Shown here one piece after another: positions 1-33,046 of a DNA stretch of 37,318 nt. A model generated the notes under the pieces. That model was not told the origin of the DNA, made no database searches, and worked only from the letters and a program-made list of their open reading frames with translations. Made by a program: the position numbers and the translations under genes. Source of the stretch: Thermoplasmatota archaeon (GTDB lineage Archaea; Thermoplasmatota; E2; JACPAO01; JAHFTW01). Numbering within the stretch: the stretch's first letter is position 1; each line of letters starts with the position of its first letter. The stretch is from the NCBI GenBank assembly GCA_046352715.1, contig JBHELM010000228.1, positions 1 through 37,318 of the forward strand, read 5' to 3'.

Positions 1-77
1 TGGGCCGCCGGGGCCGCCGGGGCCGCCGGGGCCGCCTGGGCCGCCGAGGCCGCCTGGGCCGCCGGGGCCGCCTGGGC
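1..77. repeat. Exact 77-bp copy of window end 37242..37318 (circular-contig overlap)
   Basis: Base-by-base comparison of 1..77 with 37242..37318 shows identity. The overlap is limited by the window edges. Confidence 0.95.
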
Positions 78-20782: not shown

Positions 20783-20807
20783 GTAGGGGGAACGGGCTCG
20801 GCTCGCT

Positions 20808-21313: not shown

Positions 21314-21400
21314 TGCCTCGTGTCCCGAAAGCGGTTGCCCTCACCACGGCCGGGCACTTTACCGCTTTGCTTTCCACCTAACCAATGTGCAGCCTTCAGA

Positions 21401-21430: not shown

Positions 21431-21439
21431 TAATCGAGC

Positions 21440-21515
21440 TTGACCTTCCGGCCTGCCGTGTCTAAATCATAATATAGGCACGGCACCTAACGCGGAGACT
21501 AGGGCACACACCATG
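21440..21515 (+). promoter_or_regulatory. Promoter-like element P4 (TTGACC, 17 nt, TAAATC...; AT-rich box; CA-rich leader)
   Basis: TTGACC 21440-21445, a 17-nt spacer, then TAAATCATAATATAGGCACGGCACCTAAC ... TAGGGCACACACCATG. Confidence 0.5.
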
Positions 21516-22706
21516 TCCGCAAAGAGCCGCGCCCTCGAAGCCAGCCTCTCACTCGTGCGCGACCGCAAGGTGGGCGGCAACACCCACCCATCCATGCTGC
21601 GGCACCGCTACGTTTCCGCGTCCCGACTCGTCCAGATGACGGCCAAGGCCCTCATCACCGACATCCTCGCCGACGAGGACCGCGACCCCGAGGGCGCGCA
21701 TTGGGGCGAGGACGGCAACGCGAAGGCAGAGAAGAACCTCGCCGCCGTGAAGTGCCAGGAGCCAAGCCTCGCCGTGCCCATCCTGGGCACCGGCGTCGAC
21801 GGCGGCACCTCCGGGCCAAGCCTCTCTCCGTGGGTCCTCACCGGCCACCCGGACGGTCTCGCCATCACGACGACCGGCGAGAACGGAGCCGACCGTGACC
21901 CGTTCACCCTCGCGTGGTCCTTCAGCGGCGGCGCCGAGCGCGGCCTCGCCGTCCCCTGGTTCGCCACCATCTTCGAGAACAAGGCTCCCCTGTTCACGCC
22001 CGGCGCCGACAAGGTGGAACTCTACTACCGGCAGGGCCTCCTCTACCTCGCCATGCTCCACGCGATGCACGAGCGCCTGCGCGCCCGCGTCCTGCACCCC
22101 GCCGCCTGGCTCGCCGACGAGGACCCCCGCAAGCGCCCGTGGATGCTGCCCGAGACCCTGGAACCCAGCCAGGTCGTCGTCTGCATCCAACCATCCACGG
22201 AGCAGAAGCGCGAGCAGGCGTTCCCCGTGGACGCCGCCGCCTGCGCGAAGCACCTGGACTTCTACCTCCGCAAGGCCGCCGTCGTGGTCGAGGGCGTCGA
22301 GGCCAAGGACCCCGGCGTCGGCGAGCGGAAGTGGGACGCCGAGAAGGGCGCGGGCCTGGGCGAGTTCACCATCAAGGGGGCCATCCCCGTCCTCGGCGAC
22401 GACGAGGTGGTCCGCATCACCGCGCAGCGGCAGGCCGCGCAGATGCGCCGCGACGAGGCCGACGAGGAGGTCGAGCGCCTGACGACCGCGCTGCGGGACT
22501 ACTTGCGCGCCAAGGGCGTCGAGGAGGCAACGGTGCCGTGCGATGGTGGCTCGCCCTACCGGGTGGTTCTTCAGCGCACGAAGGGCGGGCTGCGGCATTT
22601 CGTCGTGGAGGACAGCGTGGCGCTGCGGGTCTATGGTGGGGTCAAGAAGGCGAAGCCAGCCTCCGCCGCGCCTGCTGCCGCGCAGACCGTGGCGGTGACG
22701 GCGTGA
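21513..22706 (+). CDS. Hypothetical protein, possible RecB-family PD-(D/E)xK nuclease
   Basis: 397 aa and the first gene after P4. Contains YVSASRL near the N-terminus, then WFATIFENK (hydrophobic strand + ExK), followed 17 aa later by RQGLLY (QxxxY). Confidence 0.6.
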   Translation: MSAKSRALEASLSLVRDRKVGGNTHPSMLRHRYVSASRLVQMTAKALITDILADEDRDPEGAHWGEDGNAKAEKNLAAVKCQEPSLAVPILGTGVDGGTSGPSLSPWVLTGHPDGLAITTTGENGADRDPFTLAWSFSGGAERGLAVPWFATIFENKAPLFTPGADKVELYYRQGLLYLAMLHAMHERLRARVLHPAAWLADEDPRKRPWMLPETLEPSQVVVCIQPSTEQKREQAFPVDAAACAKHLDFYLRKAAVVVEGVEAKDPGVGERKWDAEKGAGLGEFTIKGAIPVLGDDEVVRITAQRQAAQMRRDEADEEVERLTTALRDYLRAKGVEEATVPCDGGSPYRVVLQRTKGGLRHFVVEDSVALRVYGGVKKAKPASAAPAAAQTVAVTA

Positions 22707-23200
22707 GCGACCGCGACAAGGTGTGCCAGCCCTGCCTAGACAGGGCGGCGCGCGACAAGTGGTATCCCTTCACGAACCCCCTGGTCGCGGCGACCTCGGA
22801 GGAGTGCGGGTTCCACCCGCGCCTCGACAACTGGCGCCTCTACCGGACGCTCGCCACCGTCCAGCACTTCTCCCAGCAGCCCGAGGGCTGGAAGGACCGC
22901 CGCGCGCCAACCGCCATCACGCTCGAAGCCGGATTGGTCCACCGCCGGAACCTGGAGTGCATCGTGTTCGACTACGAGAAGGCGCTCCTCGACTACGCCC
23001 TAGAGCAGGGCCTCATCGAGCAGACCGACCACCGCAACACCGAGCGCGTCCTGCCGCGCAGCGTCCGCCTCTCCGCCAAGGGCGACGACGCGCTGCGGAC
23101 ATGGGTGCAGGCAGGGCGCAACGATGCTGGGGCAACGGCCGCGCAGAAACACCTCGCCTCCCTCGTCCCTTCGACCGTCATCCAGCAGGAGACCGCGTAG
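22703..23200 (+). CDS. Hypothetical protein (165 aa)
   Basis: GTGA overlap with the upstream stop. Only the distal part of track ORF 21914..23200 looks coding. Confidence 0.6.
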   Translation: MSDRDKVCQPCLDRAARDKWYPFTNPLVAATSEECGFHPRLDNWRLYRTLATVQHFSQQPEGWKDRRAPTAITLEAGLVHRRNLECIVFDYEKALLDYALEQGLIEQTDHRNTERVLPRSVRLSAKGDDALRTWVQAGRNDAGATAAQKHLASLVPSTVIQQETA

Positions 23201-23647
23201 ATGGGCGGCTGGAACCTGCCGCCCGGCGTCAGCGTAAGCGACATCCCCGGCAACCGCCCCGAGGACCTCGCCGCCGAGCGGATGGCCGAGACCACGCACG
23301 AGTTCTTCGAGCGCGCGCTCGCCCACTACGGGACACCCGAGCGCAACCCCGCCATGCGCCTCCTGTTCGACGCCATCGTGGCCCTGGAAGGCGACTACAA
23401 CGACTCCCTGTGTGACCTCGTGGTCGAGCAGGAAGTCCGCGACATCCAGGACGCGCTCTCCACGGAGGCGCAGGCGATGGACTACTACCGCTCGGAGGAC
23501 GACCACGAGGAGGAACTCGCGCGCAGCCAGGCCCGCACGAAGGAACTGGAGGACGACCTGCTCGAGCGGTGCGGCCACAGCGGGGAGGGCGCCGAGCATG
23601 AGGCGTGGTGCCCAGACCGCCCCAAGGAGGTCCACCGTCATGGCTGA
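23201..23647 (+). CDS. Hypothetical acidic protein (148 aa)
   Basis: The ATG directly follows the upstream TAG. Codon bias is strong. Confidence 0.65.
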   Translation: MGGWNLPPGVSVSDIPGNRPEDLAAERMAETTHEFFERALAHYGTPERNPAMRLLFDAIVALEGDYNDSLCDLVVEQEVRDIQDALSTEAQAMDYYRSEDDHEEELARSQARTKELEDDLLERCGHSGEGAEHEAWCPDRPKEVHRHG

Positions 23648-24026
23648 CCCGAAGGCGCTGCGCTACCCCCGCGAGGTCGAGTGCGACAACTGCGGACGCC
23701 CGACAATGGTGCCCGGCCCGCCCCCGCACCCCAACGCAAAGGTCCTCTGCGGTCTCTGCCTGGAACTCTCCGTCCACCACCTCGCGCCGCTGGAGAAGGC
23801 CCGCATCATGCGGGAACTGGCCGCCATCTCGAAGCGGGTGCAGGCGATGACGCTTGAGGAGTTGTGTGCCCTGCACCGGGACGACGGCAAGGTCACGCCG
23901 TCCACCCTCGGCGACGCCCTCCTGATGTCCTACCGTGGCTTCTACGGCATGGGCCGCCTGCTAACGCTGATGAACGAACACGGCATCCCGCTCCCCATCC
24001 AACCTCCTCCGGGAGCCACTCCATGA
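23640..24026 (+). CDS. Hypothetical zinc-ribbon-like protein (128 aa)
   Basis: AAGGAGG sits 9 nt upstream of ATG 23640. Motifs CDNCG ... CGLC. Confidence 0.6.
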   Translation: MADPKALRYPREVECDNCGRPTMVPGPPPHPNAKVLCGLCLELSVHHLAPLEKARIMRELAAISKRVQAMTLEELCALHRDDGKVTPSTLGDALLMSYRGFYGMGRLLTLMNEHGIPLPIQPPPGATP

Positions 24027-24301
24027 CCACGACCAAGACCATCCCGAAGCGCCGCGTGAAGAAGTCGCCGCGCGAGCGCCTGCAAGAAGCCAACGACGCC
24101 CTGGAGCGCCAGGTGGTGCGGCGGTTGAACCGGAGCCCGCCAGCGTCGTTCGAGGACCTCATCGAGGAGGGTTTGCTCACGGAGGGGAAGGCGAACACGA
24201 TGCGGGACCGCCTGCGAGGGCGGCTCGTGGTGGTAGGGGAGCGTCCGGCCAAGACCGGGCGGGGTCGGCCCCATGTCCTTTACAACGTCCTGCCCAAGTA
24301 G
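24023..24301 (+). CDS. Small basic protein, possible winged-helix DNA binder
   Basis: ATGA overlap. 92 aa with a Lys/Arg-rich N-terminus and a wing-like GRGRPHVLYNV near the C-terminus. Confidence 0.55.
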   Translation: MTTTKTIPKRRVKKSPRERLQEANDALERQVVRRLNRSPPASFEDLIEEGLLTEGKANTMRDRLRGRLVVVGERPAKTGRGRPHVLYNVLPK

Positions 24302-24311
24302 TCGGTCCGGC

Positions 24312-24363
24312 TAAAGTATAAGTATTAGCCACGACTACAGGAGGGTTGGTGACACACACCATG
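24312..24363 (+). promoter_or_regulatory. Promoter-like element P2
   Basis: TAAAGTATAAGTATTAGCCACGACTACAGGAGGGTTGGTGACACACACCATG, near-identical to P1 from GCCACG onward. Confidence 0.5.
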
Positions 24364-24906
24364 CAGAACCCTACCCCTATCCCCGGCACCCCTCCCAAGG
24401 AGGCCATCACCTTCGGTCCTTGGGTGAAGCGGGTCGGCAGCGAGCAGATGCTCTACTGCTGGACCTGCTCCGCCACCACCTGCAAGAGCAACCATGCCGC
24501 CCTCGGCTTCGAGAGCCTCGACGCGGCCAAGACCGATGCCGGGCACCACAACCGCATTTTCCACGAGGGCCGCCTGACCATCTGGGAGCGCATCGACAAG
24601 GACAGCGAGCGGGGCCAGGCCATCGCCGCCGCGCAGCCCGGCCGCGCGAGCGCCACCGCCTTCCTCCGCCTCGTCGCCACCAAGCAGGTCCGCACCCAGC
24701 AGAAGATGGTCGAGCGGGCCGCCAAGACTCTCGGCCTCACCGTCGAGAACTGCTCCGTTCCGGCGCGCGGCGGAGGCTTCTACGTCGGCCACCCGCGCTT
24801 CACCGGCCCCGGCGGCACCTTCGCTCCAGCCAAGTCCAAGGAAATCGGCAACGCCCAGGACGCCGCCCGTGCGCTCCAGGCCGCCGGTCTCCCCGTGGAG
24901 GCGTAG
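24346..24906 (+). CDS. Hypothetical protein; start ambiguous (TTG 24346, GTG 24349 or ATG 24361)
   Basis: ORF with codon bias. P2 lies immediately upstream. Confidence 0.65.
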   Translation: MVTHTMQNPTPIPGTPPKEAITFGPWVKRVGSEQMLYCWTCSATTCKSNHAALGFESLDAAKTDAGHHNRIFHEGRLTIWERIDKDSERGQAIAAAQPGRASATAFLRLVATKQVRTQQKMVERAAKTLGLTVENCSVPARGGGFYVGHPRFTGPGGTFAPAKSKEIGNAQDAARALQAAGLPVEA

Positions 24907-24909
24907 CGG

Positions 24910-25635
24910 GTGCAGGACGCCGAGCCAGTCCGCACCATCGGCGACCCCGCCCGCGAAGCCACCATGCCTCCCGGATGGCGCACCGCCCCCCTCTGCCTCG
25001 CGCCCTGCGCCTGCGCCTCGCCAGTCCACCCCGGCCTTCACCTTGAGCGCCACGGCCAGCAGGGGTTTCCCGCCTGCGCGTGGCCCAAGGACCACCCCGA
25101 GAGCGACGGCCACCTCTGCCTCCCCGCCGACCGCAACCGATTCGCCATCTGCCCCGAGTGCAAGCGGCTCGTTCCGAAGCGCGCCGCCGACCGCCACGCC
25201 GCCGCCTGCTACGGCCCCGGCACGAGCGACCCCAAGGTCCGCGAGCAGCGCGAGCGCCTGGCCTTCGCCGCCTACCTAGAGCAGCGCGCCAAAGAGTGCG
25301 GCGCTTGGGCGCCCTCGCAGGCGTGGCGCGACGAGGAGCGCGCCACCCTGGAGGCCAACCGCGCCAGCGGATTCGGCCACGGCTTCACCTTCGAGCAGGC
25401 TGGGCGCTGCATCGAATACGTCCGCCCGTGGGCCACCCACGCCTCGCGCGGCTTTGCCAGCATGGCCCACCAACTCCGGCAGCACGGCCGCGTCGCGCTG
25501 CACGGGAAGTTCATGGCCTCCTGGATTGCCGACTGGAACCGCCGCCTGGTCCTGCTGCGCCTGGAGCCTCTGACCAACGACTTCCGGGCGCTCGCCAAGG
25601 CGGCGATGCAGGCCAAGACCGAGGCGACCGCGTGA
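24910..25635 (+). CDS. Hypothetical Cys-rich protein (241 aa)
   Basis: ORF with codon bias. Contains ICPECKRL. Confidence 0.6.
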   Translation: MQDAEPVRTIGDPAREATMPPGWRTAPLCLAPCACASPVHPGLHLERHGQQGFPACAWPKDHPESDGHLCLPADRNRFAICPECKRLVPKRAADRHAAACYGPGTSDPKVREQRERLAFAAYLEQRAKECGAWAPSQAWRDEERATLEANRASGFGHGFTFEQAGRCIEYVRPWATHASRGFASMAHQLRQHGRVALHGKFMASWIADWNRRLVLLRLEPLTNDFRALAKAAMQAKTEATA

Positions 25636-25778
25636 CCGCCCTCCATCGGCACCTCCAAGACCTCCTCCGCGAGGCCATCACGCACGCGGTCGCGGCACAG
25701 TTCCACGGCCACCCGTTGCAGGTCGAGGAGAGACGCCGGTCCTTCGTCCTGATGACGCAGCGATGGAGGAAGCCATGA
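25632..25778 (+). CDS. Hypothetical small protein (48 aa)
   Basis: GTGA overlap at its start and ATGA overlap at its end. Confidence 0.45.
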   Translation: MTALHRHLQDLLREAITHAVAAQFHGHPLQVEERRRSFVLMTQRWRKP

Positions 25779-26248
25779 CGGTCTCGTTTGAGTCGGCCGC
25801 CGAAGCCCTAGAGCAGGCCGCCCGCGCCTTCCGCCTCGCCGCCGAAGCCCCCAACAAGGTCGCCCGCGACAACTGGCTCCGCAGCGCCAACGACAGCATC
25901 CGCCTCGCCAAACGCCTCGCCGCCCGCGCCGCCAGCGCGCAGCTGGTCGGCCAGAACGTCCAGGCCGCCAACCCCAGCAGCGCCCCCACCTACACCTTGA
26001 GGGAGCGCATCATGCTCGTCCTGCCCGACGACGCCCACCGCGCCCTGCCGGTGCGCGACATCATCGACGCCTTGGCCGACCAACCGGGCGGCGTCACGTT
26101 CGACAAGAGCAGGGTCCGCCACCTGCTGCGCGACTTGGAGGGCGCCGGGAAGGTCAAGGCCGGGATGCTGAAAGGGAGTCGCGTGGAGACCCGCTACTGG
26201 CGGACGACGAGGAACTGGCGTGAGGCTCCGCCACCCCTCCCCCTATGA
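25775..26248 (+). CDS. Hypothetical protein with a winged-helix-like C-terminal domain (alternative start ATG 25763)
   Basis: The C-terminus LRERIMLVLPDDAHRALPVRDIIDALADQPGGVTFDKSRVRHLLRDLEGAGKV has a wHTH-like pattern. Confidence 0.6.
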   Translation: MTVSFESAAEALEQAARAFRLAAEAPNKVARDNWLRSANDSIRLAKRLAARAASAQLVGQNVQAANPSSAPTYTLRERIMLVLPDDAHRALPVRDIIDALADQPGGVTFDKSRVRHLLRDLEGAGKVKAGMLKGSRVETRYWRTTRNWREAPPPLPL

Positions 26249-26280
26249 TTGCAGGTGGAGCAGGTCCCCCTCTGTGGTGG

Positions 26281-26340
26281 CTTGTTCGCTTGTTTCTTTT
26301 CTAGAATCGTTTCAGGGAAGTTATGAAATACGGGTGACGC
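26281..26340 (+). promoter_or_regulatory. AT-rich putative promoter/regulatory stretch, distinct from the P family
   Basis: Lowest-GC stretch in the window by eye: cttgttcgcttgtttcttttcTAGAATcgtttcagggaagttatgaaatacgg. Confidence 0.3.
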
Positions 26341-26907
26341 ATGACGCAGCAGGAACCGACGAGTCCAAGTGCAGAAGAAAAGGATGGAACTCCTTTGACA
26401 CCGGAAACAGTTTCCACGAGCAATAAGGGGGCGGGGGTCCGCGCAACGAGCCTGGAGGCGTTCCACAGCCTCGACCTCCACAAGGTCGCTGGGCTGCGCC
26501 GCCGCATCGCGGAACACCTCGCCGTCGTCGGGCGCTCCTCCACGCGGTTGATGTCGGAGGCGCTCACCCTCGACCTCCAGGGCATCTCCCCCAGGCTCGC
26601 GGAGATGAAGCGCATGGGCATCGTGGAGACCGACGGCCGCCTCGTGAACGCGACGGGCAAGGCGGCCCTGGCGTGGCGGCTCACGGAGAACGGTGCCCTG
26701 TGGTTGCGGGGGGAGTGGATGCCGCCGGAGGACCCGAAGGCGGGCTCGGCGAAGCGGAACGCGCGGGCGCGGTTCGAGCGGGCGCTCCAGGCGGTCCTCG
26801 CCACGAAGGACACGCGGGATGACAAGGTGCTTGTGCCGATGGGTCTCATGGTGGAGTTGCATGTTGCGGAGCGTCGGCTGCGGGAGGTCTTGGCGGGGCA
26901 TGACTGA
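26341..26907 (+). CDS. Winged-helix (MarR-like) DNA-binding protein; candidate regulator or replication initiator
   Basis: LRRRIAEHLAVVGRSSTRLMSEALTLDLQGISPRLAEMKRMGIVETDGRLVNATGKAALAWRLT fits an HTH-plus-wing pattern. The first ~30 codons use atypical A/T-ending codons. Confidence 0.6.
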   Translation: MTQQEPTSPSAEEKDGTPLTPETVSTSNKGAGVRATSLEAFHSLDLHKVAGLRRRIAEHLAVVGRSSTRLMSEALTLDLQGISPRLAEMKRMGIVETDGRLVNATGKAALAWRLTENGALWLRGEWMPPEDPKAGSAKRNARARFERALQAVLATKDTRDDKVLVPMGLMVELHVAERRLREVLAGHD

Positions 26908-27067
26908 CCCCGCCGGGTGCCCTAAAAGCCAAGCCAACCAAACCGCCTGATGCGCTCGCTCCACGCCGACCTCGTGCTGTCGTCCCCTCCATCGGGTGCC
27001 TAGTGGCTCGCCTTGAGGGCAAGGTCGCGGCCTACTCCGGGGCCATAATCGTCCTCAATCCTCCAGG

Positions 27068-27128
27068 ATAACTATAAGTATTTCACACGACTCACAAACC
27101 TCCTCCACGCAAAGGGAGCTACACCATG
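27068..27128 (+). promoter_or_regulatory. Promoter-like element P3
   Basis: ATAACTATAAGTATTTCACACGACTCACAAACCTCCTCCACGCAAAGGGAGCTACACCATG. Confidence 0.45.
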
Positions 27129-27434
27129 AAACAAGCGTTCATCGAGAAGAACTTCAAGCCAGGCTCGCTCGACCTCATCAAGAGGTGCGACCGCATCATC
27201 CGCGCCTATCAGGCACAGGGATTCCGACTGACCCTCCGCCAACTCTACTACCAGTTGGTGAGCGCCAACGTCATCCGCAACGAGGAGAAATCCTACATGG
27301 AGTTCAAGAACGAGTTCCTCCAGAAGGCCAGTCCGCCGGACCTCTTGCTCATCGACGGGCGGAGCGTGGCGGCGTGGTGTGAGCGTCATCTCGCGGAGAT
27401 GCGGGTTGCCGAGGAGGCGGCCGGTCATGCCTGA
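27126..27434 (+). CDS. Small protein with a TLRQLYYQLVS motif (possible stand-alone Top6A/Spo11-type CAP-like winged helix)
   Basis: 102 aa. FRLTLRQLYYQLVSANVIRNEEKSY resembles the catalytic-Tyr helix region of type IIB topoisomerase A-like proteins as I recall it. No Toprim-length continuation follows. Confidence 0.55.
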   Translation: MKQAFIEKNFKPGSLDLIKRCDRIIRAYQAQGFRLTLRQLYYQLVSANVIRNEEKSYMEFKNEFLQKASPPDLLLIDGRSVAAWCERHLAEMRVAEEAAGHA

Positions 27435-28002
27435 CGGCACGGACGGCGCGGCGAAGCCGCTCACCGCAGCGGCCCCACCCGTGCCCGCGCGTCCCATCCA
27501 GCCCGGCGACCTCGTGAAGTTCGCCGGGCGCGGGTGGTGCAGCGCCCTCGTCGGCGGCCCCGGCCGCGTCGTCGGCATCGACGGCAGCAGCGCGGAGGTC
27601 GAGGTTCTCACGCCGGGCGAGTGCCTGGGCAACAAGTTCCGCAAGGGCGAGCGGTTCTTCTTCGGCCTGCGCGAACTCGCCCACGCCGACGAGCCACCCA
27701 TCGACCAAGCCGCTCTCGACTTGGAGGCCGCCCGCGCCAAGGCGCGCGATGCCCTGGCCGCCAACGCCCTCCAGGCCGTCAAGTCCAAGGCCATCCGCAT
27801 CGAGGACGACGCCGCTTTCCCGCTCGCCGACGGCCTGCAACTCGGCAGCGTCGCCGAGACCGGCGACCTCCGCGTCATCGTCACGCAGGCCGACGGGAAG
27901 CAGGTCGCCGTCCAGTTGCACAACAAATGGCTCCACGGGGAGATGGGCGTGGCCGCGTTCATCCTGGCGAACTGCCATCCCGACGCGAAGCCGAAGAAGT
28001 AG
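27427..28002 (+). CDS. Hypothetical protein (191 aa)
   Basis: GAGGAGG sits 9 nt upstream of ATG 27427. The gene overlaps the upstream stop. Confidence 0.6.
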   Translation: MPDGTDGAAKPLTAAAPPVPARPIQPGDLVKFAGRGWCSALVGGPGRVVGIDGSSAEVEVLTPGECLGNKFRKGERFFFGLRELAHADEPPIDQAALDLEAARAKARDALAANALQAVKSKAIRIEDDAAFPLADGLQLGSVAETGDLRVIVTQADGKQVAVQLHNKWLHGEMGVAAFILANCHPDAKPKK

Positions 28003-28030
28003 TTTCACCCGGACAGGCTCCGGGAACGGT

Positions 28031-28056
28031 GGGGAGGCTGTGCAACCTCTCCCTTT
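28031..28056 (+). terminator. Terminator-like hairpin followed by TTT
   Basis: ggggagg (28031-28037) pairs with cctctcc (28046-28052), including one G-U pair, followed by cTTT. A second hairpin gcgacca/tggtcgc lies at 28059-28084. Confidence 0.35.
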
Positions 28057-28147
28057 GCGCGACCACGTTGTGTCACTTGGTCGCAGCACTTCCTCCCCAC
28101 CCCCGAAAGAGCCTAAAGCACGGCCGGACTTTCCGAGGACACTCACC

Positions 28148-28573
28148 ATGCAAGAGAACCCCGCCCAACAGGACCACGGCCTCCACCGCCGCGACGCACG
28201 AGGAACCTACCGCGCCCCCGCGAAGCCCGGCCGGAACGAGCCGTGCGAGTGCGGCAGCGGACGCAAATCGAAGAAGTGCCACCCCGACGGCCTCCAGCCC
28301 GTCGTCCGCCGCCTCATGGACTCCGGCACCTGCGCGGTCTGCAAGAAGCAGAGCGAGGTCATCCCGCTCCGCCACGAGGGTCTCCCTGGCTGGAACGTGG
28401 ACCTCTGTCCGTCGTGTGTCCGCGACCCCAAGGCGGTCGAGGCCGTCATCGCGGGCGCGCGCAGCAGCCTCGCGCAGGGCGCGCAGGGGGGCGTCGAGGT
28501 GGCTGCGATGGCGCAGGCCACAGGCGCCCTCACCCTCGGCCCCGCGCCGGAGCCAGAGGGGGGCTCGGCGTGA
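28148..28573 (+). CDS. SEC-C motif (zinc-binding) protein
   Basis: GRNEPCECGSGRKSKKCH matches the SecA C-terminal metal-binding motif. A second CxxC...CxxC lies downstream. Confidence 0.65.
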   Translation: MQENPAQQDHGLHRRDARGTYRAPAKPGRNEPCECGSGRKSKKCHPDGLQPVVRRLMDSGTCAVCKKQSEVIPLRHEGLPGWNVDLCPSCVRDPKAVEAVIAGARSSLAQGAQGGVEVAAMAQATGALTLGPAPEPEGGSA

Positions 28574-28713
28574 CGAAGCGCACCCCACTCCAGGAGTTCG
28601 CCGACGGCCTCGCTCTTATCCTCGGTGTCGCCGAGGACCTCGACGGCGACAAGGCCGAGCGCCTCATCGGCGGCGTGACCGAGTTGTGCCGCGCGGTGGC
28701 CCATGCCGACTGA
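28570..28713 (+). CDS. Hypothetical small acidic protein (47 aa)
   Basis: GTGA overlap with the upstream stop, plus codon bias. Confidence 0.45.
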   Translation: MTKRTPLQEFADGLALILGVAEDLDGDKAERLIGGVTELCRAVAHAD

Positions 28714-29419
28714 ACGCGGCATCCTGTTCCAGGACCGCCTCGTCCGCGCCCTCCTCCGGGACCTGAACCCCAAGACGCAGACCAGGCGCCTCGTCAAGCC
28801 ACCGCCGCGCGAGGGATGGCACCCGACCGTCGAACGCTACAACCCCACGGTCATCAACCGGCACGGCGACGAGGAGCCCGGCCCCGAGGTGTTCGGGGCC
28901 GCTGACGAGGAGCAGGGTCGCGTCTGTCCCTACGGTGCGCCGGGCGACCGCCTGTGGGTCCGCGAAGCGTGGCACCCGGTCTCGACCGGCGGCGTCCACT
29001 ACCGGGCCGACTGGAGCGGAGGCTTTACCTGCGGGTGCTTTGGCGTCGGGGTCGGTGGTCTGCCGAGGTGGCGGCCGAGCATCCATCTCCGCCGCGCCGA
29101 CGCCCGCCTGCTCCTTGAGGTCACGCAGGTCCGCGTCGAGCGCCTCCAGGACATCAGCGAAGCGGACGCCCGCGCCGAGGGCGTCGAGCCGAGCGGCAAC
29201 GGATGGCTCGGCCCCGCGCGCCCCGTGAAACAGCCCGTCGGCTTTGCTCGCAAGCAGCCCGGCGTAGTCCTCGGCCCGATGACCGAGCAGCGGCTCTACG
29301 CGACGGCCCACGAGGCGTTCATGCACCTGTGGGACAGCATCAACGGCGACCGCCCCGGCGCCTCGTGGGCGGAGAACCCGTGGGTGTGGGCCATCACGTT
29401 CCAGCGGGTGAAACCTTGA
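28703..29419 (+). CDS. ASCH-like domain protein (common phage family)
   Basis: ILFQDRLVRALLRDLNPKTQTRR ... GDRLWVREAW ... WRPSIHLRRADARLLLEVTQVRVERLQDISEADA ... NPWVWAITF fits a widespread phage family that I recall being annotated as ASCH. Confidence 0.6.
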   Translation: MPTERGILFQDRLVRALLRDLNPKTQTRRLVKPPPREGWHPTVERYNPTVINRHGDEEPGPEVFGAADEEQGRVCPYGAPGDRLWVREAWHPVSTGGVHYRADWSGGFTCGCFGVGVGGLPRWRPSIHLRRADARLLLEVTQVRVERLQDISEADARAEGVEPSGNGWLGPARPVKQPVGFARKQPGVVLGPMTEQRLYATAHEAFMHLWDSINGDRPGASWAENPWVWAITFQRVKP

Positions 29420-29874
29420 GCGAACCCGAGCCTGCACCCCAGACCTTCACCACCATCGAGTCGGCCTTGGCCTTCATCGGCCGCCGAATCGGCAGCATCG
29501 ACAAGACCGGACAAAACCAACACTTCCGGTATCGCTTCATCGAACACGCCGAGGTCGTCGCCCGGAGCGCCCCCCTTCTCCACGCTGCGGGCATCGTCGT
29601 CGTGCCAATCGTCCGCAACGTCGAGGTTCGCGACGTTGAGAAGGGCGCCATCGCCGTCGTCACCGTGGCCGTCCAGTTCCGCCGCTCGAAGGACGACCTC
29701 GTGGAGGCCGTCGTCGCCGGGGAGGGCATGGACTCGCAGGACAAGGCTGTCAGCAAGGCCATCACGCAGGCGTTGAAGCGCGCCTACATGACGGTCCTCG
29801 GTCTCGCGGTCAATGAGGGGTTGGACGACCGCGCGGACTTCAATCGCCCCCCGCCGCCGAGGCGGTCGCCATGA
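29416..29874 (+). CDS. ERF-like single-strand annealing protein
   Basis: TTGA overlap. QNQHFRYRFIEHAEVV ... AGIVV ... GEGMDSQDKAVSKAITQALKRAYMTVLGL resembles the ERF pattern f.Y..l.dv ... D..dKa..kA.t.A.Ky. Confidence 0.55.
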   Translation: MSEPEPAPQTFTTIESALAFIGRRIGSIDKTGQNQHFRYRFIEHAEVVARSAPLLHAAGIVVVPIVRNVEVRDVEKGAIAVVTVAVQFRRSKDDLVEAVVAGEGMDSQDKAVSKAITQALKRAYMTVLGLAVNEGLDDRADFNRPPPPRRSP

Positions 29875-30821
29875 CGAGCATCGAGTGGACCGACGCAACG
29901 TGGAACCCCCTGCGCGGCTGCACCGCCGTCAGCGAGGGGTGCCGCAACTGCTACGCGGCTGGGCAGGCGGCGCGCTTCAGCGGCCCCGGCCTGCCCTATG
30001 AGGGGCTTGCCAAGTTCACGCCGCAAGGTCCGCGTTGGACCGGCGAGGTCCGCCTCGTGCCCGAACACTTGGAGGACCCGTTGCGGTGGAGGAAGCCGCG
30101 TCGCGTGTTCGTGAACAGCATGAGCGACCTGTTCCATCCGGCCGTGTCCAACGAGTTCATCTCCTGCGTGTTCGCGGTCATGGCCGCCGCGCCGCAGCAC
30201 ACCTTCCAGGTCTTGACGAAGCGCCCGGAGCGGATGGCCGCGTGGTTCGAGTGGGCCGCGCAGCACCCACACCGCGAAGGCCCTGGCATCGGCGGCCCGC
30301 TCGCCGCGCTCGGTGAAGCCATCTGCAACTTCGAGGGCAACCTCCCAGCACCGTTCCATGAGGAGACAGACCTCTCTTGTCTCAAGGTGGCGTGGCCGTT
30401 GCCGAACGTGTGGCTGGGCACGAGCGTCGAGGACCAGGCCGCCGCCGAGGCGCGCATCCCGCATCTGCTCGCGTCGCCTGCCGTCGTGCGGTTCCTGTCG
30501 TGCGAACCCATGCTCGGCCCGGTGGACCTCCGCTCGGCCACGGCCTTCGGCATGGCTGACCCAGAAACGACCTGGGCGGCTGCGGCCCGCGCCCGCCGTC
30601 GGGTTGATTGGGTCATCGTCGGCGGCGAGAGCGGCAGGGGCGCGCGCCCGATGGACTTGGCGTGGGCTCGGAGCCTGCGCGACCAAGCCCAAGGAGCGGG
30701 CGCGGCGTTCTTCTTCAAGCAGGTAGGCGCCTGCGCGTCGGAGGCGTCGGCGAAGGGTGGCGCTCTCGCCGACATCCCAGAGGACCTACAGGTCCGCCAG
30801 TTCCCCGAGGTGCGCCCGTGA
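29871..30821 (+). CDS. Phage Gp37/Gp68 family protein (DUF5131)
   Basis: The N-terminus MTSIEWTDATWNPLRGCTAVSEGCRNCYA is the family signature, followed by FVNSMSDLFH. Confidence 0.85.
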   Translation: MTSIEWTDATWNPLRGCTAVSEGCRNCYAAGQAARFSGPGLPYEGLAKFTPQGPRWTGEVRLVPEHLEDPLRWRKPRRVFVNSMSDLFHPAVSNEFISCVFAVMAAAPQHTFQVLTKRPERMAAWFEWAAQHPHREGPGIGGPLAALGEAICNFEGNLPAPFHEETDLSCLKVAWPLPNVWLGTSVEDQAAAEARIPHLLASPAVVRFLSCEPMLGPVDLRSATAFGMADPETTWAAAARARRRVDWVIVGGESGRGARPMDLAWARSLRDQAQGAGAAFFFKQVGACASEASAKGGALADIPEDLQVRQFPEVRP

Positions 30822-30976
30822 CAGCACAGCCGGAGGGGCCGCCGTGCCCCCTCTGCGGCGTCACCCTACTCGAGGCCCCGTGCGTCAGCGTGAACGGCGA
30901 CAAGCCCGGCAACGTCCTCCCCTACCGCCACGCCGGGCGCGCACCGCCCAGCAGCCAAGGGAGGCTCCCGCTATGA
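30818..30976 (+). CDS. Hypothetical small protein (52 aa)
   Basis: GTGA overlap at its start and ATGA overlap at its end. Contains CPLCG. Confidence 0.45.
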   Translation: MTAQPEGPPCPLCGVTLLEAPCVSVNGDKPGNVLPYRHAGRAPPSSQGRLPL

Positions 30977-31575
30977 CAAACGTGACCGCCCATGTCCGCG
31001 CCGCCATCCGGGAACGCTTCCCACCCCCCGACTGGCTCGTCGCCTTCGAGGTCCAGTTCCCCCGCGACGAGGGAGGGTATCGCTTCGCCGACGCCGTGGC
31101 CTTCGACACCCGCAAGGGCGCCGGGATGGCGGTCCACGGCTTCGAGGTCAAGGTCAGCCGGGCCGACTGGCTCACGGAGGTCCGCAACCCGCGCAAGGCT
31201 GACCCTGGCCGCGCGTCGTGCGACTACTGGTGGGTGGTGGAGGGGAAGCCGGGCATCGTGAAGCCGGAGGAACTCCCGCACGGCGTCGGCCTCTATTCGC
31301 TGGGGGGCGGCGGCGAGGCCCTGCTGCTCGCCCGCATCCATGCCTCCGTCCGCGACCCGCGACCGGGCGAGCGTCCGCTTGAGCGCAGCCTCGTCGCCGC
31401 GTTCCTACGCCGCCAAGACCCGTTGGAGCCGCGCGCCTACTTCGCTGCCCGCGAGCGCGAGGCCGAGCAGCGCGGCTTCAACCGAGGCCGCAACGAAGCG
31501 GGCCGCCTAGCCCGCAAGAGAGACCGTCTGGAGCGCGCGGGCATCTCCGACGGCGTGGAGTTGAACCTACCATGA
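30973..31575 (+). CDS. PD-(D/E)xK nuclease-fold protein, MmcB-like
   Basis: YRFADAVAFDTRKGAGMAVHGFEVKVSRADW fits D ... E-x-K followed by SRaDf. Confidence 0.55.
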   Translation: MTNVTAHVRAAIRERFPPPDWLVAFEVQFPRDEGGYRFADAVAFDTRKGAGMAVHGFEVKVSRADWLTEVRNPRKADPGRASCDYWWVVEGKPGIVKPEELPHGVGLYSLGGGGEALLLARIHASVRDPRPGERPLERSLVAAFLRRQDPLEPRAYFAAREREAEQRGFNRGRNEAGRLARKRDRLERAGISDGVELNLP

Positions 31576-31829
31576 CACCCTGGTTTGTGGACCCCGTGCG
31601 GCGCTGTCACCACAACGCCGCTGCTTGCCCTGGACCGGAGACCCCGGAACAGAACTGCGGCGCCAGCATCTACCGCCACATCGTCTTTGAGAACCCGGAC
31701 GCGACCGGTCTCTACGACCACTTCACCGGCATCATCGAGGTTGGGCCGGTGCAGGATGATGGGCAGCGCAGGAACGCGCTCGCGGAGGCGGTGGCGCGGG
31801 CGCTGAACGAGGCGAAGGTGGTGCCGTGA
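31572..31829 (+). CDS. Hypothetical protein (85 aa)
   Basis: ATGA overlap plus codon bias. Confidence 0.6.
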   Translation: MTPWFVDPVRRCHHNAAACPGPETPEQNCGASIYRHIVFENPDATGLYDHFTGIIEVGPVQDDGQRRNALAEAVARALNEAKVVP

Positions 31830-32059
31830 GGTCGGACTCCTGCGCCCCCACCTACCCGTCCGGCATCGAACCGGAGTGCTTCACCCACGCCGTCGGTGAT
31901 GTGGCCTGCAACCTCCAGGTGGAGCAGGTGCTCGCCGTCGAGCCGCTGCTCACCGACAACGCCAAGGCCAAGATGCTCCGCAAGTTCACCTCCATCGACC
32001 AGGAGCCGCAAGGCATCTACGGCCGCACGGTCGCCCGAATGCACAGGTGGGTGGCATGA
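31826..32059 (+). CDS. Hypothetical protein (77 aa)
   Basis: GTGA overlap plus codon bias. Confidence 0.55.
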   Translation: MRSDSCAPTYPSGIEPECFTHAVGDVACNLQVEQVLAVEPLLTDNAKAKMLRKFTSIDQEPQGIYGRTVARMHRWVA

Positions 32060-32472
32060 CGAAGGCTTACAGCACCGACCTCCGCCGCCTGCCCCGCTTC
32101 AGCGTCGGCAGCAAGCGCGAGCCCAACCGCTACCTCATCCTCGTCGCCCACGACCCCTTGTGGAACACGCGCGACGCGCCCCTCGTCACCTACCCCGGCG
32201 GCAAGGTCCTCGGCCAAGCCTGGCTGGAGAGCCGTGGACCGTGGCTCGCCATCCTGCACCGCGACTTGACGATGGGGCCGGAGCCCCACTACTCGCTCCA
32301 GGCGCTCGCTCCGACGCGGCGGCACTTCGGTCAAGCCCCGCTCCGCGCGCTCCATGAGGCCGCACAGCGGGAGGCCGAGCGCATCGTGCGGGACTGGAAC
32401 GAGTTCGGCGTCAAGCCGACAGGCGACCAGGTGTTCTACTGGTCGAACTGGACGGGGAGGAGGCAACCATGA
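32056..32472 (+). CDS. Hypothetical protein (138 aa)
   Basis: ATGA overlap at 32056. The track start GTG 32047 is the alternative. Confidence 0.6.
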   Translation: MTKAYSTDLRRLPRFSVGSKREPNRYLILVAHDPLWNTRDAPLVTYPGGKVLGQAWLESRGPWLAILHRDLTMGPEPHYSLQALAPTRRHFGQAPLRALHEAAQREAERIVRDWNEFGVKPTGDQVFYWSNWTGRRQP

Positions 32473-32639
32473 CGCCCGAGGTCGAGCGCCGCGTCGGCAA
32501 CGAGCGAGAGGGCGGCTACAAGTTCCGCGCCCGCGCGCCCTGCATCGACGGCACCCTCAACGACCAAGAGGTCCTTGAGAGGTTCATCCAGCACCAGAAG
32601 CGGACCTGCCCCTGCTTCGCCGGAGGGAAGCGGGCATGA
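32469..32639 (+). CDS. Hypothetical small protein (56 aa), not in the ORF track
   Basis: ATGA overlaps at both ends. Translation is MTPEVERRVGNEREGGYKFRARAPCIDGTLNDQEVLERFIQHQKRTCPCFAGGKRA. Third-position GC is high. Confidence 0.5.
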   Translation: MTPEVERRVGNEREGGYKFRARAPCIDGTLNDQEVLERFIQHQKRTCPCFAGGKRA

Positions 32640-33046
32640 CCGGGCGCGGCCCCATCAAGGACGGCCTCATGCGGCGCCGCCGCTACTACTCGAACAAGGG
32701 CACCCGCTACGAGTCCGCGTTCTCCAACCGGCACCCCCCACCCATCCGGCCGGAGGAACTCGTGGACCTGGAGGCGGACCTGCGGCGGCGTCGCCGCATC
32801 CCGGCGAGCAGGCACGGCGTCGCCATCCTGGAGGAGGCCCTGGCCTCCCCCGAGGTTCCCCCTCGCGCTCCCCCTCCTAGCCCCCTCGCCGTCGCCGACT
32901 GGTCGCGGTGCGCCGCCGTGAAGAACGACGGCGACCGCTGCACGAGGCCGGGCCGGAAGCCGCTGCTGCCGTGGGGCAAGGACCCCCGCCGCCTCTGTGG
33001 TCTCCATCACCGTGTTCGTGCGAGCGTCGAGGTGCTGCCGCTTTGA
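32636..33046 (+). CDS. Hypothetical basic protein (136 aa)
   Basis: ATGA overlap. The C-terminus is CAAVKNDGDRCTRPG ... CGLHH. Confidence 0.55.
   Translation: MTGRGPIKDGLMRRRRYYSNKGTRYESAFSNRHPPPIRPEELVDLEADLRRRRRIPASRHGVAILEEALASPEVPPRAPPPSPLAVADWSRCAAVKNDGDRCTRPGRKPLLPWGKDPRRLCGLHHRVRASVEVLPL

Follow-up and report, generated by a model that had tools for sequence, protein, structure and literature searches.

Conserved AT-rich composite units ahead of gene blocks in an uncultured tailed virus, with a layout that hints at archaeal TATA-box promoters

The window, the whole stretch of 37,318 nt analyzed here, is the 37-kb genome of a tailed virus with a GC content of 70 % and is circular or terminally redundant. 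About 10 % of the window is intergenic, the only ORFs of more than 500 aa encode the tape measure and a tail protein, small holin-like membrane proteins are encoded 3' of the tail genes, and no tRNA genes or Rfam families were found in the window. A nucleotide search of a phage collection with the window gave no matches. The search with the capsid protein found no isolate relative, as its homologues were all metagenomic proteins, and the large terminase (TerL) had relatives at just 25-30 % identity. The lineage has no cultured member and no isolate relative, and its gene functions are mostly unassigned; a recurrent motif at gene starts would allow its transcription to be mapped, including the boundaries of units, probable start points and types of leader. 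The initial annotation had described five such elements, P1 to P5, and two weaker copies. These and the other features discussed are:

3098 to 3150, + strand: P1, with GGAAAG (3098-3103), TATA-like TTAATATA (3104-3111), GCCACGAC (3115-3122), TA (3123-3124), the purine block GGAGGGGTGGTGA, the CACACACC spacer and ATG at 3148
4328 to 4374, + strand: conserved hairpin upstream of the portal gene, containing GGTGTGTG
4389 to 4420, + strand: weak TATA-like box TTTTCACA, starting 29 nt 5' of the portal ATG at 4418
21399 to 21433, both strands: palindromic double site, GAGTCGTGGC-AAGTAAAATTACTT-GGCCCGACTAA
21455 to 21515, + strand: P4, with GCCGTGTC (21455-21462), TAAATCATAATATA (21463-21476), GGCACGGC (21477-21484), CCTAAC, CACACACC and ATG at 21513
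24023 to 24301, + strand: gene for a basic winged-helix protein of 92 aa, pI 11.3
24312 to 24363, + strand: P2, with TAAAG, TATAAGTA (24317-24324), GCCACGAC (24328-24335), TA (24336-24337), GGAGGGTTGGTGA, CACACACC and ATG at 24361
26318 to 26343, + strand: separate A/T box AAGTTATGAAATA, of another type and without a GCCACG box
27068 to 27128, + strand: P3, with ATAAC, TATAAGTA (27073-27080), CACACGAC (27084-27091), SD-like AAGGGAG (27112-27118), CTACACC and ATG at 27126
28113 to 28150, + strand: degenerate copy, CTAAAG adjoining CACGGCC, with no TATA-like 8-mer
34907 to 34942, + strand: decayed copy, TTTATATC 33 nt 5' of the small terminase (TerS) ATG at 34940, GCCACG box gone
36587 to 36635, + strand: P5, with TAAATC, TATATACT, AGCACACC (36602-36609), TA, AGGTGAGG, CCAACCAC and TTG at 36633

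The strings of P1 to P5 are all present on the + strand, each directly 5' of an ORF that is on this strand and has a high GC3. We scanned the 37 kb without bias for 12-mers containing 10 or more A/T, using a first-order Markov model as the null, and obtained seven clusters where 1.6 were expected (P1-P5, 21408-21423 and 26318-30), all of them intergenic. The 16-mers with at least 14 A/T numbered five, as compared to an expectation of 0.02 and no more than 1 in any of 300 simulations. The window's only long repeat of high identity is a direct repeat of 53 nt, at 89 % identity, between P1 and P2. The string ACAC(A/C)CCATG occurs three times (0.10 expected), and an A/T hexamer followed by CACGRC 4 nt on occurs twice (0.02 expected). 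We also built a scoring matrix solely from 18 sites in four relatives, leaving the window out. This matrix ranked P1 (35.6 bits), P2 (33.8), P5 (30.3), P3 (25.7) and P4 (21.4) among the top matches in the window, together with two new sites, one on the - strand (anchor 21406, 30.2 bits) and one on the + strand (anchor 21425, 26.0 bits); the best match per shuffle in 100 shuffles had a mean of 11.5 and a maximum of 23.5 bits. The claims that the boxes form one family, and that they are strand-specific, intergenic and each ahead of a gene block, are borne out by these results.

The weak copies fared differently. An element is indeed present near 28114, with its start at 28113, but both this and the copy at 34907 scored below 3.3 bits with the relatives' matrix and are decayed relatives of the motif rather than motif matches. 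The element at 28113 retains only the TAAAG plus CACGGC part and a GAGGACACTCACC-ATG leader, and the position of 34907, 5' of the small terminase gene, corresponds to that of a true site in a relative (L002 19865). The initial list of boxes was also incomplete, as it lacked the double palindrome at 21399-21433, the palindromy of P4 and the separate A/T box at 26318.

The motif was found in five virus genomes, the window and four relatives from metagenomes, with protein identities of just 50-75 %. It is conserved at equivalent positions, four of which are syntenic: after the large terminase, before the nuclease, after the regulator and before the small terminase gene. It thereby passes the check set by the initial annotation, for which missing conservation in relatives would have counted against the elements. 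Sites orthologous to P1 lie directly 3' of TerL (L006 11483, L008 5231 and L009 11761). P2, which is flanked by GTAGTCG...CGACTAC, lies directly 3' of the 92-aa winged-helix gene and is syntenic with L002 12316 and L001 7884. P3 has a syntenic counterpart in L002 15047, both directly 3' of a gene for a regulator-like protein of 188 aa (26341-26907, phrog_2440; all Pfam and PDB matches of the protein were insignificant), and P4 has orthologs at L002 9120, L023 9554, L024 9978 and L001 5957. The A/T box at 26318, with a T-rich tract upstream and the 188-aa gene downstream, is conserved in L001 8921. The motif is absent from relatives at 44-71 % protein identity. Pattern scans for further copies returned the known relative and chance matches without context in IMG/VR, and, in JGI contigs, one chance match in a low-GC coding region and the known relative, which is roughly 36 kb long and present in about 45 samples. 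Taken together, the AT-rich boxes are real and conserved in related viruses.

Conservation at the same junctions could also arise if the units were non-regulatory, as gene-cassette junctions (moron-like or recombination linkers) or as RNA signals within a long transcript (an RNase site or an AU-loop hairpin). TerL is conserved 5' of P1 while the small genes 3' of it are unrelated between genomes, more distant relatives have neither the cassette nor the motif, copy pairs within one genome are near-identical, and RNA folding is conceivable for the palindromic copies. Co-variation is absent from the stems, however, and most copies are unable to fold; a hairpin or leader structure of the GGTG...CACC type showed no consistent pairing or covariation across copies. 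The strict tie to start codons and SD-like blocks, and the synteny before the nuclease and TerS genes, fit expression signals, and if cassettes are swapped at shared promoters, this would follow from the promoters rather than replace them as an explanation. We therefore regard a non-regulatory role as very improbable.

The unit is composite, and its full layout is common to 24 sites in the five genomes, nearly all of them intergenic and on the coding strand. From 5' to 3' it consists of GG(n)WAAG, an 8-bp TATA-like box, a GCCACG(R)C box and a TA step about 19 nt 3' of the TATA start, followed by a TTGAGG/GGTGA purine block, the CACACACC spacer and the start codon. The A/T box as a whole spans 14-16 nt, and the conserved part extends about 45 nt 3' of it. 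On its upstream side GG(n)WAAG is conserved in nearly all 24 sites (as GGAAAG, GGCTAAAG, GGGTAAG or GGCAAAG), its likeness to the TFB-recognition element being one of sequence only. The TATA-like 8-mers seen are TTAATATA, TATAAGTA, ATAATATA and CTATATAC, and the A/T part shows TATA-like sequence preferences beyond mere A/T richness. The CA-rich tract, which had been listed among the shared features, is the spacer between the SD-like GGTGA/GAGG block and the start codon rather than a separate element, and at 12007 and 28148 this spacer is found with no A/T box. With the start codon as a proxy for the transcription start, the distance from the TATA start is 44 nt at P1, P2, P4, L002 12316 and L002 15047, and 38-46, 29-34 or 53-56 nt at the other sites; P3 has the longest leader among P1-P5. 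The distance is never below 25 nt except at one site, which has another in-frame ATG at 31. A detail that fits the archaeal reading poorly is the annotated ATG of L002 7733, just 19-20 nt from the TATA box; at L008 5231 the ATG itself is at +29 from the TATA start. Counted by eye, 15 of 21 sites have TA at +18..21 from the TATA start, and about 14 of the 21 have a T-G/T-A step at +28..32; the transcription start to which these positions are related is a predicted, not a measured, one.

Being real and conserved, the boxes are very likely start signals of virus gene blocks, and in layout they come closer to archaeal TATA-box promoters than to bacterial ones. In published archaeal promoters the BRE is near -33, the TATA box near -27 and an A/T element near -10, with Y/R at -1/+1 and an SD of the GGDGRD type (PMC5316973, PMC4983044). 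The unit resembles the BRE-TATA promoters mapped in Thermococcus, Haloferax and Halobacterium, and those of the haloarchaeal virus BJ1, in its 8-bp A/T box with an A-rich element directly upstream. If transcription begins where predicted, it would also resemble them in an A/T step some 10 nt ahead of the start and in a pyrimidine-purine at the start itself. It differs from the archaeal core promoter in the GCCACG(R)C between TATA box and start and in the mirror image of this box at some sites. The GCCACG box is confined to one clade of viruses and has no counterpart in any known core promoter.

We give about an even chance to the reading that the boxes are strong archaeal promoters of the BRE/TATA type, marking virus transcription units, with a palindromic operator, perhaps for a winged-helix protein, at the P4-type sites. 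In such a promoter the A-rich GG(n)WAAG would occupy the place of the TFB-recognition element (BRE), the 8-bp A/T box would be the TATA box, and the -10 proximal element would have its counterpart in the TA step, about 19-20 nt 3' of the TATA start. Transcription would begin within TTG(A/G)G, at a pyrimidine-purine step about 29-31 nt 3' of the TATA start, and the mRNAs would start about 13-15 nt 5' of the start codon. The predicted starts are about 3133-3135 at P1, 24346-24348 at P2, 27103-27107 at P3, 21499-21501 at P4 and 36620-36622 at P5. Their leader would hold the SD-like GGTGA/GAGG block and the CACACACC spacer ahead of the start codon, so that each unit would carry transcription and translation signals together; awkwardly for this reading, at L001 5957 the AGAGGTG block would fall 5' of the predicted transcription start. 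Copies with the TATA box just 25-34 nt from the start codon would yield leaderless mRNAs. P1 would drive the variable small genes that separate the large terminase gene from the portal gene, P4 the operon of a RecB/Cas4-like nuclease (assigned by fold), and P5 an (Ala-Ala-X)n repeat gene with the large terminase gene farther on. The motif with its statistics, strand, position, conservation and synteny, the palindromy of the P4 class and the family-wide -29 signal described next are observations; initiation at the boxes, its start points, an archaeal machinery and a regulator are what we infer.

The family as a whole offers a second view of promoter geometry. In the GeneMarkS-2 scheme, the archaeal group D has a promoter box about 22-26 nt from leaderless starts, as compared to about 10 nt in bacteria (PMC6028130). 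We collected 87 gene starts with an upstream gap of at least 44 nt from 13 loci and observed, at family genes without an SD, a weak T/A element 29-27 nt 5' of the start codon. The signal is moderate: T at -29 was seen 29 times where 14.8 were expected (p = 1.6e-4, n=87), in a set that relies on automatic start calls and includes orthologous, non-independent sites. An artefact in which this T belongs to the stop codon of the upstream gene across a short gap was rejected, as the signal persists when only gaps of at least 44 nt are used. Other A/T peaks lie at -36..-34 and at -11/-10, and a de novo EM motif search in the family returned GCCT(C/T)AAG starting at -34..-31. Because the T/A element sits 29-27 nt 5' of SD-less starts, the geometry is that of archaeal leaderless genes and not the bacterial one.

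This was further supported by a calibration based on one archaeal and one bacterial virus. An SD-like block was present on 39 % of the first genes in the virus family, 38 % in the haloarchaeal virus BJ1 and 81 % in the Streptomyces phage phiC31, and a TATA-like box at -32..-26 on 26 %, 25 % and 7 %, respectively. The family is further like the archaeal systems, BJ1 included, in its predicted leaders, which are short or absent, in first genes that lack an SD and have a box about 26-29 nt 5' of them, and in internal genes that carry an SD. BJ1 also uses CTTAAGCC and GTTAAGCC boxes resembling those of the window family. The dual pattern, SD-less first genes with an upstream box and the others with an SD, was present in the family at moderate strength, on sites that are not independent.

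The alternative that the boxes are bacterial promoters, of the sigma-70 family and '-10 only' as in Actinobacteria or Deinococcota, or read by a phage factor as in T4 late transcription, we regard as less likely, though a serious rival. Here the A/T box would be the -10 hexamer, transcription would start about 7 nt later inside GCCACG, and the next conserved 25-30 nt would be a 5' leader with the SD-like block and the CA-rich spacer. The -10-like hexamer claimed for the boxes does exist, since every box holds a TAnnnT (TATATT, TATAAG, TATACT), which is trivial in an A/T stretch, and a purine lies 6-8 nt 3' of it; its bacterial interpretation is doubtful given the absence of a -35 and of a TG extension and the archaeal geometry in the family. 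A consensus scan for -35/-10 pairs gave no match in 18000-37318 and one weak match in 1-18000 (CTGAGA-N18-TATATT, at P1), no more than in shuffles, and the extended form TGnTAnnnT was sought with the TG found in none of the boxes. The -35 reported for P4 is present as TTGACC-N17-TAAATC at 21440-21468, but it is a poor match that the consensus scan did not call. An A/T box of 14-16 nt is far longer than a hexamer and has the conserved GG(n)WAAG upstream, and the fixed TA and TTGAGG downstream are not explained by a -10 hexamer. Before SD-less starts (group C) a Pribnow box at -12..-7 gave no pattern (n=87), as only -11/-10 was raised and T at -7 was at baseline (15/87), in contrast to the signal at -29; the share of first genes with an SD-like block is likewise far from that of phiC31.

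Other properties of the genome lean towards bacteria. Hosts that are high-GC and non-halophilic in soil or sediment are mostly bacteria, the accessory genes (DUF5131, phrog_874, ERF, MuF and TerS) have their nearest isolate homologues in bacteriophages at 45-50 % identity, and the holin-like proteins after the tail genes would suit a bacteriophage. GC-rich hairpins after several operons fit bacterial termination, L043 and L044 have hairpin-plus-T structures 3' of the capsid gene, and C-rich, G-poor intergenic tracts are possible Rho entry sites; a search for hairpin-plus-T terminators found no excess in the window. On the opposite side, an endolysin was searched for in the window and none was found, nor was a sigma-like protein. 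Runs of at least four T are concentrated directly 3' of stop codons, a further hint in the archaeal direction. T4 late promoters, TATAAATA, are read with gp55/gp33. These and the actinobacterial '-10 only' promoters resemble the unit in their TATA-like 8-mer, the lack of a -35 and the several copies, each ahead of a phage gene block. They differ in that no gp55-like or sigma-like gene was found in the window and that the conserved sequence here runs about 45 nt 3' of the box. The box-to-codon distances (at least 25-29 nt, mode 44) also misfit a start at 7 nt plus a free leader, unless the whole leader is conserved for another reason.

Several other promoter types were considered and rejected. 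Promoters of T7-like single-subunit polymerases, which would be near-identical over about 23 bp in all copies, are not supported: no gene for such a polymerase was found, the A/T box varies strongly from copy to copy, and the ACGACTCAC shared by P3 and the T7 promoter is out of register. For sigma-54 (TGGCAC-N5-TTGC at -24/-12) we found GGCACGG at P4 and a reverse-strand TGGCAA without a correctly spaced TTGC, and the partner elements are missing both for the Bacteroidota type (TAnnTTTG/-33 TTTG) and for a UP-element with TTGCCA as -35. CCACGCC conforms to SSRCGCC, the BRE consensus of the eukaryote type, yet both its strand and its side relative to the TATA box are wrong for a BRE.

At the P4-type sites the GCCACG box is mirrored across the TATA box, GCCGTGGC-N14-GCCACGGC (CGTGGC-N14-GCCACG). 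The arms of P4 are complementary at 7/8 positions, and the orthologous sites are palindromic at 6/8 or better in 5/5 genomes as compared to 6.9 % in the null. The arms of the palindrome at 21399-21433 are the two divergent motif copies found by the matrix, and its centre is 54 bp from that of P4; this palindrome may serve as another operator or as a divergent promoter. The gene for the 92-aa protein is present in 5/5 motif-bearing genomes and absent from the motif-less L005 and L025, and it lies inside the operon that the palindromic P4 promoter would drive. In a single-sequence model the protein resembles PadR/GntR/MarR-like winged helices (Foldseek E-values of 0.012 or above). The P4-type copies are perhaps also palindromic operators, with the conserved 92-aa protein as the candidate binder. 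The GCCACG box would then be a half-site for a dimeric virus-encoded regulator positioned over the TATA box. That this protein binds the half-sites is offered purely as a hypothesis, and its assignment as the regulator, from co-occurrence and the single-sequence model, is a weak one.

A rival reading would make the unit mainly a binding site for a virus protein, an operator or a specificity factor site, with the core promoter elsewhere or weak and the A/T part as a bendable spacer. The palindromes in five genomes with a second one 54 bp away, the restriction of the motif to one clade and its absence from the relatives at 44-71 % identity, the co-occurring winged-helix protein, and a downstream half that is identical within each genome and different between genomes all speak for it. 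Most copies (class A), however, have a single good half-site, all copies are oriented to a gene at a fixed distance from the start codon, and the A/T part has its TATA-like preferences. We consider it improbable that binding is the main role, and binding would complement promoter function, not exclude it.

Known core-promoter-overlapping operators of dimeric winged-helix repressors, whether of the PadR/MarR/GntR type or of archaeal repressors blocking TBP/TFB, are alike in the inverted half-sites flanking the A/T box (P4-type), in the second site five helical turns off and in the candidate winged-helix gene in the operon. They differ in that most copies in the window keep the downstream half-site only and that the binder is a predicted one; the half-site spacing (14-bp spacer, about 20 bp centre-to-centre) and sequence are new relative to known winged-helix operators. 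The palindromic P4 sites and the co-occurring protein would make up a small, directly testable regulator-operator pair. The start-associated sequences of Cluster K and the stoperators of Cluster A mycobacteriophages are short conserved intergenic motifs in one orientation, some abutting the ribosome-binding site and some bound by repressor (PMC3203893, PMC9283540). They are 13-17 bp, not A/T-rich and present in 10-30 copies. The window instead has 5-7 copies of a composite of about 50 nt with a TATA-like box and no sequence similarity to those motifs, and only the leader part of the unit resembles a start-associated sequence.

The long structural operon had been thought to have no element of its own. 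We found an A/T 8-mer exactly 29 nt upstream of the portal ATG in 4/4 genomes compared (the window, L006, L008 and L009). Candidate roles for the hairpin at 4328-4374 are a terminator, an antiterminator or a processing site.

Few features of a virus genome report the host transcription machinery, and promoter geometry is among them; in this family it is a moderately strong pointer to an archaeal host. The layout of the boxes is a hint that the host of the uncultured family is a high-GC archaeon. The accessory genes mostly look bacteriophage-like, and a genome this GC-rich and this little acidic does not match the archaea that would usually be suspected. Haloarchaea are the only well-known high-GC archaea, and they are excluded as host because the proteome is not acidic (median pI 6.9); the 'Halobacteriales' label of one MAG, with protein MCA1811492.1, probably reflects an error in binning or naming. 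MAGs with archaeal labels contain a 99 %-identical contig and two distant terminase relatives, and the MAG labels are mixed (Halobacteriales, Thermoplasmatales, Bathyarchaeota and several bacterial). A TerL-profile scan of genome contigs gave relatives at no more than 34 % identity, in MAGs of mixed taxa, and the contig L011 from a Thermoplasmatales-labelled MAG holds virus structural genes only and no host genes. As a tentative proposal, to be taken as a conjecture, the host may be a high-GC non-halophilic archaeon (e.g. soil or sediment Thermoplasmatota), with BRE/TATA promoters and the GCCACG operator by which the winged-helix protein would control the virus's own recombination operon. This would provide the first promoter grammar for such viruses. 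If the archaeal reading is true, tailed archaeal viruses would gain a new host group, and the host domain of metagenomic viruses would prove to be assignable from the positions of promoter signals.

The strings quoted in the initial annotation were each found at their coordinates, and the AT-rich boxes are a genuine conserved family of expression signals, as confirmed by chance statistics and by a matrix from relatives. In the window, 12-mers with at least 10 A/T form only seven clusters (P1 to P5, 21408–21423 and 26318–26330), all intergenic, vs 1.6 under a first-order Markov model, and 16-mers with at least 14 A/T were observed five times when 0.02 were expected. A 53-nt repeat with 89% identity is common to P1 and P2, and ACAC(A/C)CCATG occurs 3 times in the window (0.10 expected). 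Four related genomes were reached via the nuclease, terminase and capsid proteins: a ~36.1-kb JGI contig family, a 32.2-kb and a 23.5-kb Logan contig and a 38.6-kb IMG/VR contig. With a scoring matrix made from 18 sites of relatives only, scanning of the window on both strands ranked P1 (35.6 bits), P2, P5, 21406 on the − strand, 21425 on the + strand, P3 and P4 (21.4 bits) as the top seven, compared to a mean best score of 11.5 bits in shuffled sequence. Two weaker copies proposed earlier, at 34907 and 28114 (starting in fact at 28113), did not hold as copies of the motif, both scoring below 3.3 bits.

The window (37,318 bp, ~70% G+C) is a siphovirus-like genome in which GC3 frame analysis placed every credible gene on the + strand.

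Main genes of the window
1639–3087, +, large terminase (TerL)
4418–5743, +, portal
5743–6543, +, MuF-like
8424–9305, +, major capsid
12625–15189, +, tape measure
29416–29874, +, ERF recombinase
29871–30821, +, DUF5131
34940–35686, +, small terminase (TerS)

The proposal that the boxes are promoters delimiting modules is supported in substance. In the window, each unit heads a gene block.

Gene blocks headed by the AT-rich units
3104, +, P1: small variable genes, then a conserved hairpin, the portal and structural genes
21463, +, P4: RecB/Cas4-like nuclease through a 92-aa winged-helix gene
24312, +, P2: three unknown genes
27068, +, P3: Spo11-like fragment and the next ORF
36587, +, P5: (Ala-Ala-X)n repeat protein, three further genes and the large terminase

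The motif was also conserved at equivalent positions in related viral contigs, as had been asked of a real element: after TerL (L006 11483, L008 5231, L009 11761), before the nuclease gene or one gene earlier (L002 9120, L023 9554, L024 9978, L001 5957), after a 188-aa regulator-like gene (L002 15047) and before TerS (L002 19865), of which the box at 34907 in the window is a decayed ortholog. Since proteins are only 50–75% identical between motif-bearing genomes, the preservation of an intergenic unit of 45 nt shows that it is under selection. The motif was missing in L005 and L025 (nuclease protein 44–47% identical) and in L041–L044 (capsid protein 56–71% identical), and public viral and metagenome contigs contained none beyond the known relative. 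The 188-aa regulator-like gene itself is preceded by a conserved T-rich tract and another A/T box (AAGTTATGAAATA / AATGTTTCAAATA; window 26249–26340, L001 8880–8945), and appears to be served by a different type of promoter.

When copies are aligned on CAC in the box, the unit begins with (C)CGG / GG(n)WAAG and an 8–10-nt TATA-like stretch (TTAATATA, TATAAGTA, CTATATAC or ATAATATA), followed by (T)TGCCACG(R)C, 0–3 nt, TA, a G run, TTGAGG or (T/G)TGGTGA, (C)GACACACACC and the start codon. Class A comprises P1, P2, P3 and their counterparts, with the form ...GCCACGCCAATAGGGGGTTGAGGCGACACACC-ATG, and class B (P4, P5, L002 9120, L023 9554, L024 9978, L001 5957 and 11399, L009 7898) carries GCCACGG(N)CCTAAC. 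Downstream of the box, copy pairs are near-identical inside one genome and different between genomes. The CA-rich tract described as a shared feature is the spacer between the Shine-Dalgarno-like (SD-like) block and the start codon, and is also found where a gene has no A/T box (12007, 28148).

Window scans found no −35/−10 pairs, nor were intrinsic terminators in excess. The boxes lack a TG extension, and a conserved A-rich GG(n)WAAG lies on their upstream side. From the first nucleotide of the 8-bp TATA-like box, the start codon is 44 nt away at P1, P2, P4 and several relatives and 38–46, 29–34 or 53–56 nt away at other sites; the distance is never below 25 nt, except at one site with a second in-frame ATG at 31. 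Most sites have a TA step 18–21 nt and a T-G/T-A step 28–32 nt after the TATA start, and L008 5231 has its ATG at +29. Ordinary genes were represented by 87 starts from 13 loci with an upstream gap of at least 44 nt, strong sites left out, a gap limit that removes the artefact of upstream stop codons. Here A/T peaks at −29..−27 (T at −29 in 29 vs 14.8 expected, p = 1.6e-4, n = 87), with additional peaks at −36..−34 and −11/−10; a −12/−7 pattern was not seen in these 87 starts. An EM motif, GCCT(C/T)AAG, starts at −34..−31.

The archaeal layout has a BRE near −33, TATA near −27, an A/T element near −10 and Y/R at the start (PMC5316973), haloarchaeal elements are TTWT, CGAAA and WW at −10 (PMC4983044), and GeneMarkS-2 separates an archaeal 'group D', with a box ~22–26 nt from leaderless starts, from a bacterial 'group C' at ~10 nt (PMC6028130). 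The geometry of the virus family matches the published archaeal one, including 'group D'. Identical counts were used to calibrate it against a haloarchaeal virus and a Streptomyces phage.

SD-like blocks and TATA-like elements at −32..−26
This virus family, first genes: SD-like block 39%, TATA-like element 26%
Haloarchaeal virus BJ1: SD-like block 38%, TATA-like element 25%
Streptomyces phage phiC31: SD-like block 81%, TATA-like element 7%

BJ1 also has CTTAAGCC and GTTAAGCC boxes, like the weak element of the window's virus family. That the boxes are of archaeal type has, in our judgement, about an even chance of being right. The earlier interpretation as bacterial −10 boxes probably names the wrong kind of element, given the missing −35/−10 pairs and TG extension and the archaeal-type distances; bacterial −10-only promoters are a possibility to which we give less weight, roughly one chance in three. 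On the archaeal-type reading, the weak element would mark −29 from a leaderless start, and a strong TATA at −44 would put the start ~13–15 nt before the ATG, at the 5' edge of GGTGA/GAGG, so that one rule would cover both classes.

A hairpin upstream of the portal gene (4328–4374), a possible terminator of P1 transcripts, is conserved in four genomes (regions: window 4328–4396, L006 13085–13190, L008 6130–6210, L009 12470–12590). It always contains GGTGTGTG, the complement of the leader spacer CACACACC, and is followed by CCTTTTCA and, in the window, by the portal gene's TTTT element at −29. In four genomes an A/T 8-mer (TTTTCACA, TTTTCACG, TATAAACC, TTTTCAGG) starts exactly 29 nt before the portal gene, which in two of them lacks any SD. 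In the initial annotation the structural operon had no composite element of its own; because of this −29 element the operon probably has its own weak promoter and does not depend on read-through alone.

No known core promoter includes the GCCACG box. P4-orthologous copies have inverted arms around the TATA stretch (GCCGTGGC-N13/14-GCCACGGC), and arm complementarity of P4-type sites was at least 6/8 in five of five genomes vs 6.9% of null trials. The window holds a further 35-bp palindrome at 21399–21433, with both arms good motif copies and its centre 54 bp from that of palindromic P4. As GCCACG is clade-restricted, mirrored at P4-type sites and joined in the window by a second palindrome at a distance of five helical turns, a virus-encoded dimeric DNA-binding protein may sit over the TATA box. 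A 92-aa protein of pI 11.3 (24023–24301) is encoded at the end of the P4 operon by a gene that stops 10 nt short of P2; it is 60–85% conserved in all five motif-bearing genomes and is missing in both motif-less relatives covering that region. Modelled from its single sequence (pLDDT 79), it forms a winged helix like PadR/GntR/MarR factors, with weak E-values, and we hypothesize that it is the best candidate binder. The operator-like box of the element family is clade-specific. The 92-aa protein is also among the best-conserved non-structural proteins of the clade. The − strand copy at 21399–21433 faces an ORF-free stretch ending in a strong hairpin (~21275–21320), and could give a short antisense or non-coding transcript.

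If the archaeal reading is true, it has a bearing on which hosts tailed archaeal viruses infect. Besides the promoter geometry of boxes and ordinary genes, an archaeal host is favoured by the lack of a recognisable endolysin in 18590–21158, T-runs clustered right after stop codons (8/11 intergenic), a hairpin-free pyrimidine- and T-rich tract that follows the capsid gene of six genomes, the binning of a 15-kb contig with 99% identity into a 'Halobacteriales archaeon' MAG (protein MCA1811492.1 vs window 21513–22706), and MAGs with Thermoplasmatales (GC 66.7%) and Bathyarchaeota labels that contain distant terminase relatives. Against it, actinophages and Burkholderia phages have 45–50% homologues of DUF5131 and a phrog_874 protein, several operons are followed by GC-rich hairpins, two relatives (L043, L044) have classical hairpin-plus-T structures, and high-GC non-halophilic archaea are rare. 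The viral proteome is also not acidic (median pI 6.9), so replication in a salt-in haloarchaeon is not possible and the 'Halobacteriales archaeon' label is suspect; this label or the binning is probably wrong.

No nucleotide match to the window was found among 50,697 phage records, no relative of its capsid protein among isolates, and most of its non-structural proteins lack a family match. A 9-bp tandem array (GGGCCGCCN) is common to both window ends (2–179 and 37108–37318) inside one ORF, starting at 36633 and stopping at 240, and is translated as (Ala-Ala-X)n, where X is W, G, E or R; the genome is thus circular or terminally redundant, and the record opens it within a coding repeat. In the JGI relative the orthologous protein has 322, 326 or 330 aa depending on sample, showing that the repeat number is unstable. 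The terminase genes are kept apart by three genes and a 630-nt GC-rich stretch without credible ORF (36003–36632), between the small terminase operon and P5, which could be a packaging or replication site. The 397-aa protein at 21513–22706 contains the motifs ExK and QxxxY but hit nothing in Pfam or PHROG; its model shows a weak match to nucleases of the RecB/Cas4/lambda-exo type, and its C-terminus gave a faint, insignificant profile match to T4 MotA. Its gene is the most widely conserved non-structural gene of the family and often adjoins ERF. The first 60 aa of 27126–27434 resemble a Spo11/topoisomerase VI-A-type N-terminus (phrog_6247, motif RQLYYQ), and ORF 27379–28002 overlaps it by 56 nt in a different frame; this may be a split or frameshifted gene. 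The region 18590–21158 encodes two basic proteins of 270 aa, one tail-anchored protein, a holin-like protein with two TM segments and a 116-aa protein rich in Cys. Directly after the major capsid gene, a pyrimidine-rich tract with T4–T5 runs (CCCTTTTCCCTTCTTCC-like) and no hairpin is present in the window (9306–9360), L006, L008, L009, L041 and L042; at this position L043 and L044 carry a GC hairpin with a T-rich tail.
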